Of a stretch of 64,000 nucleotides of DNA, positions 30,859 to 34,339 are shown piece after piece. Below the pieces are notes generated by a model. That model was not told where the DNA came from. It saw only the letters and a list, made by a program, of their open reading frames with translations, and ran no database searches. Origin of the DNA: a virus (Duplodnaviria > Heunggongvirae > Uroviricota > Caudoviricetes). How positions within the stretch are numbered: the stretch's first letter is position 1; each line of letters opens with the position of its first letter. Where the stretch lies: the IMG/VR virus record IMGVR_UViG_3300045988_155182, one strand, 5' to 3'. Position numbers and translations under genes: made by a program.

Positions 30859-31194
30859 ATGAAGGCCATCCCATTCGCGCTGTTGTTCCTTTCTTCGATC
30901 GTTGTGGCCGACACCACTGTTTATCAGTGTGAAATGTCTGTAGCCGACGTTAAGAATGGCGCTCTTACCGACGTCATAAAAGCACCATATGGAGCGATGG
31001 TCGTAGACAGCGGCGACCAGTTCTATGTTGTGCGTGACGATCGAGTGTTGTCATCCCCATATCTCACAAATCGTAATGGCAAATTAACCGGCGTCGGAGA
31101 AGACCACTTCGTATACAACAAATACAAGGGCTTCTATGGCGTTCACGCTTCTCAGCAAAGCTACCTTTTCGATGACTGCAAGGAGGTTGGATAA
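30859..31194 (+). CDS. Hypothetical secreted protein
   Basis: N-terminal signal-peptide-like segment MKAIPFALLFLSSIVVA. Confidence 0.35.
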   Translation: MKAIPFALLFLSSIVVADTTVYQCEMSVADVKNGALTDVIKAPYGAMVVDSGDQFYVVRDDRVLSSPYLTNRNGKLTGVGEDHFVYNKYKGFYGVHASQQSYLFDDCKEVG

Positions 31195-31406
31195 TGGCAT
31201 TAACACTGGCAGGTCTGGAAATCGAGAAAACAAGCGGCTACTGGCGTGCTAAGGGTTTCAAGCAGCCTGGCATTCTTGAGCGTCTGGAACGTGAAGATGG
31301 GTATATCGTCCACCAGCGGCGTGAATGGCGTATGTACGATCCAGAAACAGGAAAACTGACTACAAAAGCCGGAACACTTTGGGGTCTGTTGAAGAAAATA
31401 CACTAA
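31194..31406 (+). CDS. Hypothetical small protein
   Basis: 70 aa; start overlaps the upstream stop. Confidence 0.3.
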   Translation: MALTLAGLEIEKTSGYWRAKGFKQPGILERLEREDGYIVHQRREWRMYDPETGKLTTKAGTLWGLLKKIH

Positions 31407-31413
31407 TAGCACC

Positions 31414-31895
31414 AACCACTGCGGTGAGTAGTCTGCTCACCGCATTCGTATCCAGCTCATTATCCACTGTAGTCAGTAACAAAACCTTCCTACATATCTG
31501 CTAACCACTGTAGCGAGTAGACAGCCTTTCATTCGCATCAAACAACCACTATGGTGAGTATTGGAGTGAGATGTCCAGCGGGTATCCACTATGGTGAGTA
31601 AGCCTTTGCTGTTTTCAGTGGATATCCACTCGCCACAGTGGATACGCTCAAAGATGAGGGCGACAACAACCACTATAGACAGTAAATTTTCCAAGATACC
31701 CAGTGACCACTAACCTCGCAGCCCTTGTTTCATCAGTGTTAGTGATCACTAACATTTAATTCAGTATTTGCATTCTACTGCCTACAGTGGTTATCAACAG
31801 ATAACGATACTCACTATAGTGGATAGCGAATTACAGATATAAGTAAGGCTCACTACAGTGGATAGTGAGCCTTACTACTAACTACAGTGGTTGGG
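31414..31895. repeat. Iteron array downstream of repA (copy-control/inc-like), about 12 units in mixed orientation
   Basis: Repeated CCACTATAGTG / CACTATAGTGGATA-type units, e.g. aaccactgcggtgagtag, atccactatggtgagta, ctcactatagtggatag. Confidence 0.75.
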
Positions 31896-32951
31896 CTATT
31901 TGCGAGTCTTTGCCTTGCGCAACTCTTCGAGAAGCGCCAGTTCTTCTTTACTCAACATGACCATTTTGCCTTCTTTTTCGTCAGGCACAACGTCGATAAT
32001 GTCATCTTGATTCTCATCTGGGAGGCTATATTCCGTCTCATCATTATCGATTTTTGTTGATATTTGTGCCTGGCGTAACTTTGGCCGCCTATAGTGGATG
32101 ACGAAGTAGACCGAGTTTCCGCGCTTAACTTCCGTGTAATCGAGATATCCTATCTCTCGCAGCTGTTCCATAGCCTTTCTTACCGTCGCATTCTGAGTAA
32201 TAGTGCGACTTGTCAGATTAAGTCTGGCGCGTAAACGGGCTAGTGATATTGGTGCCGGATCAGGCGGCAAACTTTCAATAAAAGTATAAAGCGCCTGAGC
32301 GGATTCTTTTCTTGAGAGTTCGTTTATAGCCCGGAGTTGCAGAAGAACCTTTTTGTCGAACTGGTAGAGTTCGAAAATCTTGGGATCTGCTTTCAGTTCG
32401 ACCGTATCGTGCTTGACACTATATTTTGCCGTTTGCACAAGATGCGTTACGTAAAACTCATCAGAGCCTTTGCTACGGAACGAGATGGTATTTGTGGCAA
32501 TACGGCTTAGCGAACTGTCCAGGCGTTTGCGTAACTTCGCTGATGACCTGGCGGTCGGAATGCCACACAGCCTTACAAACTCAACGAACGGCAACGTGAC
32601 AGTATCGCCAACGACCTTGTGTTTGGCAAACGCGTGGATTATTCCCACCCACGTTTTAAAGTCGTTATCCATATCAAGCCGAAGGCCAGAGATCCTTATG
32701 TCTTCGTACCCTTCGGCTTTTGCCAGAGACAGCTGTTTGAGTTCAGCAGAGGCATCCATAGAGACCATTTGCCCCTTTCTTCCTCTGGATGTCGATTTCA
32801 GCGTCGGAACGAAGAGGCCCAGACGCATCAAAGCAACAGGCTGAACAGTGTTATTAGTGTTAGGAACCAACGTAACAACTTCGCCTGTCTTTTTATCTGT
32901 TTCTGAAAATGCTTCAACGATCGCTATGTTTTTATTGCCGTTTTCGCTCAT
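31896..32951 (-). CDS. repA: Iteron-binding plasmid replication initiator (RepA, P1/IncFIB-like architecture)
   Basis: 351 aa gene flanked on both sides by arrays of 21-22 bp iterons, with DnaA boxes and GATC clusters upstream of its 5' end; protein reads as RepA-like ([18 protein letters not shown]) from memory. Confidence 0.75.
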
Positions 32952-32995
32952 TCCAAATGTCTCTTGTTATTCGACGGCTTTGGTGGCCTTTGCTG

Positions 32996-33115
32996 ATTAC
33001 AGTGGATAGTAGCACTCATCACAGCGGTTATCCTACCGTCTATAGTGGTTTTTCTCCTCTCTATAGTGGTTGCTTTGCTCCCTATAGTGGATTATTCGCT
33101 CTCTATAGTGGATAT
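32996..33115. repeat. Origin iterons: six direct repeats of about 21 bp upstream of repA
   Basis: Units ending in ctatagtggWT spaced 20-22 bp apart (ctctctatagtggttgc, ccctatagtggatta, ctctctatagtggatatc). Confidence 0.8.
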
Positions 33116-33149
33116 CGATCATGTCTGAAGGCAGATGGCACAACGGTTT

Positions 33150-33285
33150 GAGGTGGGCGGGGATCTTATTGGGTCTTTATGGGTCTCTTTGGTTCTCTTT
33201 GTGATCTGAATTACTGGATCGGGCCTGTGGATAAAAATCAGAGGATTTCAAGAACAGGTAACTCTACTCTTCTGTGGATATTTAA
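33150..33285. promoter_or_regulatory. Origin accessory region: GATC sites plus DnaA boxes
   Basis: GATC at 33163, 33204, 33217; perfect DnaA box tgtggataa at 33227-33235 and an 8/9 box at 33274-33282. Confidence 0.65.
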
Positions 33286-33392
33286 GGACATAAGAATCAT
33301 GACTAAGAGTAGAGTTTAAAATATATCTATGTATATCAGTATGTTAATGAAGAATTAAGTCATTAAGTTATCCATAAAAGACAATGTGCTCT

Positions 33393-33610
33393 ACTCTCTA
33401 CAGTGGATATATACAGCTCTCCAGAGTGGTTGTTTTACTCTTCATAGCGGTTATTCAGCTCTCTACAGAGGTTTCTTTGCTCTCCATAGTGGATGGCAAC
33501 ACCCTTTCAGACCAGTAACCGCAACGGCTAGAGGCGATCGGGGATCTCTTTGGATCTTCTATTTGATCTTACTTGGGATCTCTTATTTGGATCTATCCAG
33601 TGGATAACTG
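33393..33610. repeat. Second origin-like module: five iterons, five phased GATC sites and a DnaA-box-like site
   Basis: Iterons at 33393-33496 (ctctctacagtggatat, ctctccatagtggatgg); GATC at 33543, 33553, 33565, 33577, 33590 at 10-13 bp spacing; agtggataa at 33598-33606. Confidence 0.65.
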
Positions 33611-33694
33611 GGATAAGTAAAACAGGCAAATGCAGATTAAGGTATGCCTAATGAGTTATCGTAGCATCGGCCAATAACTACTGAAAAAACGATT

Positions 33695-34339
33695 ATGGAT
33701 CTAAAACGCACGCGCTGGGTTCGTCGTCTTGAGGACGGCTCCTACACTATCGAATCAAATTCCAACCTGAATAAGCAGAAGTTACTTTGTGATATCTGCG
33801 GTATAGCGGCGAAGTGCCCGATCTACGAAACCAGAATTAAACTTGATAAGGCTGGTGTGAACTTTCATTTGAATAGTTGTATCAGGTACGTTCCATTGCT
33901 CGCATTTCGTAAACCGATCATCGGATTGGATGCGCCCTACTTCAACACACTCCGTTCAGGAGTAACGTGGCGAGATCGTTTATCACCAGACAAACTGATT
34001 TGCCTTGTATCCGCAGATACAGGAAAAATCATTCGTTTTGGGAAAGTAGACAAGGTTTACTCAGGCCCAGTTGACGAGATGTTGCGGAAACACAGCCGGT
34101 TTAATCACCTCTGCATGGGTGGTGAGAAAATCGAGAAGGTTGAAGAAGTGATCCGCAAATCCTACGGACACTTCCTGACCAAAGATAGCCTGCTCACTGC
34201 AATCTACATCAGACATGTAAAACGTGAGTTCGACCTTGAATACCATAGCGAAGAAGAACTGAACCTTGTCGATCCACGTCCTAAAGCTGGCGTCATAAGC
34301 ATAAATGCAGCGCGTAAAAAGCCCACTGACGCGCTGTAA
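33695..34339 (+). CDS. Hypothetical protein adjacent to the origin
   Basis: 214 aa ORF with ATG start. Confidence 0.35.
   Translation: MDLKRTRWVRRLEDGSYTIESNSNLNKQKLLCDICGIAAKCPIYETRIKLDKAGVNFHLNSCIRYVPLLAFRKPIIGLDAPYFNTLRSGVTWRDRLSPDKLICLVSADTGKIIRFGKVDKVYSGPVDEMLRKHSRFNHLCMGGEKIEKVEEVIRKSYGHFLTKDSLLTAIYIRHVKREFDLEYHSEEELNLVDPRPKAGVISINAARKKPTDAL

Follow-up and report, generated by a model that had tools for sequence, protein, structure and literature searches.

When a single replication initiator gene is accompanied by two origin-like modules, which of the two is the origin, and what does the other one do? This question is raised by a 2.4-kb region in a 64,000-nucleotide viral sequence of the Caudoviricetes (IMG/VR record IMGVR_UViG_3300045988_155182), the whole of which we call the window. 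Here the initiator gene repA, on the minus strand, is preceded by a proximal module A (32988-33234) and, beyond a spacer, by a distal module B (33391-33607). A first-pass annotation, made from the letters of the sequence without database searches, had taken the repA-proximal module as the origin and the second one as an extra; the comparative data reported here point the opposite way or to both modules. The explanation that we favor, at about even confidence, is an old tandem duplication of a P1/RepFIB-type origin, in which B would be a complete origin rich in Dam sites and A would be the repA operator with a derived core.

The region is identical to that of Escherichia phage Cyrano (the phage-plasmid pLF82 of E. 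coli LF82; 100% identity over 2401 bp), and its DNA is 83% identical to that of Salmonella phage SSU5. It matched 461 plasmids of about 100-125 kb in PLSDB, from Escherichia, Enterobacter, Yersinia (pMT1), Salmonella (pHCM2) and Citrobacter, and it occurs in 91 of 5426 complete E. coli genomes, plasmid-borne every time and at full length in 90 of them (in the 91st, the region is split at the record start). The window has the backbone identity to SSU5, pHCM2 or pLF82 that is expected of an SSU5-like phage-plasmid, and the flanks consist of SSU5-like backbone genes, with a P1 Cra-like gene and small open reading frames on one side and ASCH-domain and SbcCD-like genes on the other. The locus is thus the plasmid-prophage (plasmid-maintenance) replicon of an SSU5-like phage-plasmid. 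Its repA (31896-32951, minus strand) starts with ATG and encodes a 351-amino-acid initiator of the Rep_3 family (WH1 plus WH2; Pfam Rep3_N 1.3e-10, Rep3_C 1.3e-4), which is homologous to the P1 and RepFIB initiators, with 60% identity to RepB of F RepFIB, 47.5% to P1 RepA and 100% to Cyrano RepA. MOB-suite typing in PLSDB places pMT1, pHCM2, the Enterobacter plasmid and the CT29 relative all in IncFIB, and the window, itself untyped, would belong there through these relatives (DNA 83% identical, RepA 91-92%).

The iterons mark out the replicon clearly. Their core, YAYAGYGGWT, occurs 22 times in the window against 1.68 expected, a number reached in 0 of 100 shuffles, and 20 of the 22 cores fall within 31462-33494; the counts per array given below allow one core mismatch. 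In module A, the plus-strand iteron array (32988-33115), a probable repA operator, contains the six direct iterons at 21-22 bp phase that had been annotated upstream of repA (cores at 32998, 33020, 33041, 33062, 33083 and 33104). They lie 37-165 bp before the ATG, where this family has about five direct iterons in two-helical-turn phase. The array is followed, also on the plus strand, by a relatively G+C-rich linker (33116-33158, 44% A+T) and by a core of 10-11 bp TGGRTCTnTT repeats (33159-33222). Only three of these repeats retain GATC (33162, 33203 and 33217), and the middle ones read GGGTCT or GGTTCT; an extra GATC at 33117 abuts the last iteron. The module ends with a perfect DnaA box, TTATCCACA, on the minus strand. 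The annotated three GATC sites and perfect box are hence both present, with the box at 33226-33234 and not at 33227-33235. Relatives carry TTATACACA at this place, and a second box matching at 8/9 positions (ATATCCACA) lies at 33273-33281.

Module B repeats the same order on the plus strand. Its array (33391-33496) has five iterons with cores at 33399, 33422, 33443, 33464 and 33485, two of them with one core mismatch, and the individual deviations from the consensus are conserved between lineages. After a linker of 46% A+T (33497-33533) comes a GATC array (33534-33595) with six Dam sites 7-13 bp apart, at 33536, 33543, 33553, 33565, 33577 and 33590 (spacings of 7, 10, 12, 12 and 13 bp), which is a probable unwinding and SeqA-sequestration region. 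These six sites within 58 bp make it the only 60-bp stretch of the window with six GATC, against a Poisson expectation of about 0.015 per 64 kb. The DnaA box on the minus strand, TTATCCACT (33599-33607), matches at 8/9 positions and is followed by a decayed second box (33608-33616). The repA-less second module described in the first-pass annotation is therefore real in its five iterons and its DnaA-box-like site, whereas its GATC sites number six and not five. Taken together, a GATC-repeat cluster of the expected kind (about five between iterons and DnaA box) is found in both modules, with six sites in B and three plus degenerate repeats in A.

The two modules can be related by alignment to each other and to known origins. 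A self-comparison for repeats, as had been proposed, revealed the modules to be paralogous across iterons, linker, repeats and box, with a clean alignment and repeat families D1, D9, D10 and D14 recurring at offsets of 373-381 bp. Both modules also align to the annotated P1 oriR and to the F RepFIB origin. In module B, the GATC segment corresponds by homology to the five Dam sites annotated in P1 oriR, and the outer 21 bases, TTGGATCTATCCAGTGGATAA, are identical to its DnaA-box end; the 8/9 box itself is identical to the first of the two P1 boxes at this position (AGTGGATAA, then TGTGGATAA). As both modules align and the outer end of B is identical, the iteron, GATC and DnaA-box grammar of P1 oriR, which had been recognized from the letters, is inherited and not convergent. 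The GenBank order in P1 is incA (nine iterons), repA, incC (five iterons including the PrepA promoter), five Dam sites and DnaA boxes, and the locus resembles it in the succession of its parts, from DnaA boxes through GATC repeats, a G+C-rich linker of some 40 bp and five or six iterons phased at 21 bp to repA and the downstream iterons, as well as in being the replicon of a phage-plasmid. It differs in that P1 has one origin module where there are two in tandem here, in the iteron (...CAGCACACAT... in P1, ...CTAYAGTGGWT here), in the nine downstream iterons against about 12 in two opposed blocks, and in the DnaA boxes between iterons and repA, which are present in P1 and absent here. RepFIB (F, P307, pO157; IncFIB) has the closest characterized initiator, and it likewise has origin iterons B, C, D, D' and D'' upstream of repA and control iterons E-K downstream (PMC11983097). 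The F RepFIB origin has five GATC and DnaA boxes, which align with both modules, but it is a single module with the iteron core ACAGYTTAT; its gene starts with CTG (PMC11983097) where repA here starts with ATG. Judged by sequence, the locus therefore has every feature of the P1/RepFIB family except the possession of one origin module per replicon, in place of which it has two paralogous ones.

Is the second module more than a remnant? Both modules are present in SSU5, pMT1, pHCM2, an Enterobacter plasmid and a second E. coli lineage (CT29), with identical site counts and positions. We compared the window with these five relatives segment by segment, using the four-fold degenerate sites of repA (63% identity) as the neutral baseline. 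The A iterons are 85-89% identical, the A repeat core 86-95%, which is the highest of any segment of the locus, the B iterons 85-88%, the B linker 76-89% and the B GATC region 76-77% with every GATC invariant, while the inter-module spacer is only 59-64% identical. Because the modules are at 76-95% and the spacer and degenerate sites at 59-64% and 63%, purifying selection acts on both modules and not on the spacer. Selection also differs in kind, since in B the GATC tetranucleotides are fixed in six lineages and the intervening bases drift, and in A the repeats are fixed over their whole sequence although the central ones are no longer GATC. That one module is a functionless scar, left by the duplication or by a cointegrate between related replicons, is an explanation already disfavored, and we regard it as very improbable. 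Replicon swapping is evident in SSU5-like backbones, where breakpoints fall within or close to the conserved core; against a scar, however, stand the conservation of the modules across Escherichia, Salmonella, Yersinia and Enterobacter, the absence of natural deletion variants lacking one module among the 91 E. coli genomes, and the recurrence of the two-module layout throughout a Rep clade in many genera.

This recurrence was found in a one-genome-per-species scan with Rep alignment, which gave 80 loci from other species. To locate cores, an nhmmer profile that covers linker to DnaA box and leaves out the iterons was run on the 1.5 kb preceding each rep, after detection of iteron arrays by regular expression had proved too brittle and was dropped. 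At 25 Pantoea megaplasmid loci we found the classical layout, a single core 147-259 bp from rep with 5-7 GATC. The remaining loci come from Kluyvera, Buttiauxella, Yersinia, Rahnella, Erwinia, Pantoea, Phytobacter, Franconibacter, Scandinavium, Cedecea, Xenorhabdus and a Tolumonas metagenome-assembled genome. About 40 of them have two cores, a proximal one at about 145-285 bp and a distal one at about 430-670 bp, and in about 13 the distal core stands alone at 380-870 bp from rep, while beside rep there are iterons but no recognizable core. In a neighbor-joining tree of Rep, a single clade takes in every two-core and distal-only locus, and outside it the replicons of P1, F, the Klebsiella type, Kosakonia and the Pantoea megaplasmids are all single-core; it is this tree that suggests a single duplication event. 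We set aside the assignment of module orthology across genera from core sequence, as the cores are short and saturated (between-group identity 56.7 for proximal-proximal, 61.1 for distal-distal and 56.8 for proximal-distal). Two modules are also present on a 180-kb plasmid of Pantoea agglomerans, which is no phage-plasmid, so the arrangement belongs to the replicon and not to the phage lifestyle.

Within this clade, the distal copy tends to stay complete and the proximal core to erode. Of the 41 two-core loci, 35 show a higher number of GATC in the distal core than in the proximal one, 5 an equal number and 1 a lower number, and the profile score favors the distal core in 38. Across genera the distal cores are nearer to single-copy cores than the proximal ones are (56.8 versus 52.9), and the B cores are 65-69% identical to the single-copy cores of P1, Klebsiella and Kosakonia plasmids, whereas the A cores reach 50-56% and sit on a long branch. 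These identities, the GATC and score counts and the distal-only loci favor B as the probable main origin. The position of B agrees with this, because B sits at the place of the sole origin of sibling SSU5-like plasmids and shares their outer flank. Those single-origin phage-plasmids (Klebsiella, E. coli and Cronobacter; for example p23-2, pEC881_2 and pCS1) have the same phage backbone and synteny, an ASCH-like gene abutting the origin, and a GATC/DnaA segment 70-79% identical to module B; they differ in having one module directly upstream of rep, unrelated iterons (ACCGCTGACAGCATAC) and a Rep that is 53% identical.

Several observations weigh against B as the main origin beside an operator-like A. 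The A core is the most conserved segment in the window's lineage, which fits poorly with a mere operator; the perfect DnaA box is in A, with only an 8/9 box in B; and iteron scores do not separate the modules (20.5 versus 20.4 bits for A versus B). The closeness of B to the Klebsiella and P1 cores may come in part from recombination inside the core during replicon swaps. Moreover, one reverse case was found, a Buttiauxella metagenome-assembled genome (L061, 1-460 bp upstream of rep), which combines a complete proximal module of five iterons, four GATC and a perfect DnaA box with a distal module reduced by decay to one iteron and three GATC and lacking a box. The proximal copy can therefore be the working origin, and this reciprocal decay is an argument for origin competence of both copies once the duplication had occurred. 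Finally, as we found no experiments on any two-module replicon in the literature searched, the functional steps considered here are all drawn from sequence.

Reciprocal decay, mostly of the proximal copy and in L061 of the distal one, is what would be expected if either copy can serve as origin, and it lends some weight to an explanation in which both modules are active origins under one RepA, either redundant or condition-specific, for example with B used on fully Dam-methylated DNA and A under limiting methylation or SeqA control. Also in its favor are the complete geometry that both modules keep (iterons, linker, phased repeats, DnaA box), the purifying selection on both, and the 86-95% conservation of the GATC-poor A repeats themselves. 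Nevertheless, many related lineages have an eroded proximal core or have lost it, which makes a second origin dispensable there, and the central A repeats are without GATC, whose bases in the P1 repeats are reportedly critical for origin function. We consider two active origins a rather unlikely outcome, at perhaps half the confidence given to a main origin B with an operator-like A.

Still less probable, in our judgment doubtful, is that A is the sole working origin and that B, as in the second option of the first-pass annotation, serves in negative control or incompatibility by titrating RepA, DnaA and SeqA or by pairing with A. Such an element would fit the fact that the origin abuts rep in every characterized relative (P1, RepFIB; PMC11983097), the perfect DnaA box of A with an A+T-rich stretch beyond it, the case of L061, where the proximal core alone is kept, and the auxiliary control iteron clusters known elsewhere, such as V. 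cholerae ori2-inc (PMC6090056). The known control arrays, however, are without GATC arrays or DnaA boxes, while B keeps six invariant GATC and a box; about 13 related loci with no recognizable proximal core keep a complete distal module; and B is closer than A to working single origins. The same sites speak to the proposal of the first-pass annotation that the second module might be an iteron-titrating or incompatibility locus. Loci of that kind (P1 incA, F incC) need iterons only, and bare auxiliary loci, among them also the extra iterons of RK2, consist of initiator sites with neither an unwinding element nor a DnaA box. Module B keeps its six-GATC array and box across lineages, and a purely titrating role for it is unlikely.

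Returning to the favored explanation of a main origin B and an operator-like A, the mechanism would run as follows. RepA monomers would load on the iterons and host DnaA on the outer box, and the phased repeats between them would melt, as in P1 oriR. Module B would fire as the main origin, with RepA on its five iterons and melting in the GATC repeats; because of its six Dam sites, B would be expected to need methylation and to undergo SeqA sequestration after firing. RepA binding at the module A iterons would autorepress repA, since the putative repA promoter lies among them. In this way the duplication would separate initiator autoregulation (A) from origin firing (B), which are coupled by the single iteron array in P1. 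Handcuffing between arrays A and B is possible. The A core probably still does something, because it is strongly conserved despite having lost half its GATC sites: it may be an auxiliary or second start site that is less Dam-dependent, or a pairing partner for B, and by analogy it may be a strand-specific RepA binding site in melted DNA, since TrfA and RepE are known to bind the repeats of their origins in a strand-specific manner (PMC4980987).

The promoter in this scheme is assigned to the hexamer TAGGAT (33030-33035, minus strand) at the junction of the second and third A iterons counted from repA. It equals the annotated -10 element of P1 PrepA, at the matching iteron junction and a similar distance from the start codon, and it is unchanged in six close lineages; other genera have TAGAAT, TAGATT or TAGTCT (TAGnnT) at this position. 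A further point to be set against the scheme is that the site has no good match to a -35 element and is not called by the consensus promoter scan, for which reason we only infer that the repA promoter lies here. The same scan gave no conserved sigma-70 site for repA; a strong-looking match in the spacer (33347-33320) was discarded, as it is not conserved in relatives.

A different copy-number logic would also follow if one RepA served two origins, a Dam-dense B that is sequestered and a GATC-poor A that escapes sequestration, or if A and B formed a handcuff in cis. Autoregulation would be uncoupled from firing either way, unlike in P1; we put this forward tentatively and think it improbable. 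The copy number of P1 is about one per chromosome. That of Cyrano is about 5.5 per chromosome (PMC9928086).

How unusual is such an arrangement? Other replicons combine one initiator with more than one site cluster and tune copy number through the additional ones, such as RK2 with the extra iterons of oriV and R6K with its alpha, beta and gamma origins. V. cholerae ori2-min and ori2-inc likewise have several site clusters for one initiator, the extra ones tuning copy number by titration or pairing (PMC6090056). In ori2, RK2 and R6K, however, the extra clusters are bare sites or depend on a shared enhancer, whereas here each module has its own linker, GATC repeats and DnaA box. We found no description of a double module in the literature searched, outside which lie the original pMT1, pHCM2 and P307 papers, so that a prior mention is possible.

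The replicon type maintains the Y. pestis virulence plasmid pMT1, S. Typhi pHCM2, the SSU5-like phage-plasmids and many Pantoea, Erwinia and Rahnella plasmids; PLSDB holds hundreds of plasmids of the SSU5-like phage-plasmid kind, and some SSU5-like phage-plasmids have been reported with resistance genes. Theory on the control of iteron plasmids was built on replicons whose single array serves as origin and operator at once. A conserved natural separation, in lineages that span from two full origins to an operator with a distant origin, would make autoregulation, titration, pairing and Dam/SeqA sequestration separately testable, and the proposed natural split of autoregulation from firing in pMT1, pHCM2 and widespread phage-plasmids should be of interest to plasmid biologists. 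It could also improve the design of curing and incompatibility cassettes against such plasmids, as the success of RepFIB curing was decided by the iteron block chosen (PMC11983097).

Downstream of repA lies a further iteron field (31409-31895), the counterpart of P1 incA and RepFIB E-K. The roughly 12 iterons in mixed orientation that had been annotated here were recovered as six on the minus strand (cores at 31414, 31462, 31503, 31544, 31584 and 31668) and six on the plus strand (31614, which is weak, 31634, 31783, 31815, 31854 and 31883). These iterons match the consensus best, with a mean of 26 bits against 20 for arrays A and B, on a position weight matrix trained on the downstream iterons themselves. 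The field would act in negative control by titration or handcuffing, as P1 incA and RepFIB E-K do. This role is suggested by analogy with experiments on the RepFIB E-J block, which displaces the replicon on its own, an effect that the origin iterons lack (PMC11983097). The number of downstream iterons differs among relatives (12 in the window, 13 in pHCM2, 14 in pMT1 and 16 in SSU5; L002-L006) and changes through gain or loss of units of about 40 bp. Amid the field, a conserved non-iteron block at about 31700-31760 separates the two opposed iteron sets. It holds a repeated ACCACTAAC-like motif, the second copy of which is in the window a perfect 16-bp palindrome, GTTAGTGATCACTAAC (31738-31753), with GATC at its center, and it is conserved across SSU5, pMT1, pHCM2, Enterobacter and CT29; a similar motif lies 3' of rep in Klebsiella p23-2 (L007 1340-1400) despite unrelated iterons. 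A lone consensus iteron core, CCGCCTATAGTGGATGA (32090-32099, plus strand), overlooked at first, lies within the repA coding sequence toward its 3' end and is kept in 6 of 6 lineages compared.

The inter-module spacer (33236-33390) is 71% A+T and diverges at a near-neutral rate, with small conserved islands that include an inverted DnaA-like box, TTATCCATA (33368-33376), and an IHF-like match (33334-33346). The inverted box is about 20 bp ahead of the first distal iteron, and at equivalent places in other genera (L047, L033, L056) there is a perfect TTATCCACA; with this box ahead of it, the distal array has a DnaA box on either side, like that of P1 oriR. The spacer also has a 12-bp inverted repeat, AACTCTACTCTT / AAGAGTAGAGTT (33259-33270 and 33306-33317), in the window's lineage only. 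For structured RNA, there was no Rfam match in 31000-34000, and the fold of the spacer hairpin is lineage-specific and not significant (z = -0.77).

On the outer side, the replicon is bounded by a divergent gene for an ASCH-domain protein (33695-34339, plus strand; annotation from Cyrano), and an ASCH-like gene also adjoins the single origin of the Klebsiella-type SSU5-like plasmids. SSU5-like backbones carry at least two different Rep/iteron cassettes with the GATC/DnaA segment and flank in common (L007 2860-3130, L008 2880-3130, L012 2340-2600), which suggests replicon swapping by recombination within the conserved origin core. Upstream of the replicon, the RecA-like gene is unusually long (Cyrano RecA coding sequence of 2340 nt; L001 1-368, L006 1-657). 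The open reading frame matching Cyrano RecA in the CT29 relative (L006) is annotated as a LAGLIDADG homing endonuclease, and this annotation suggests that the RecA contains an intein.

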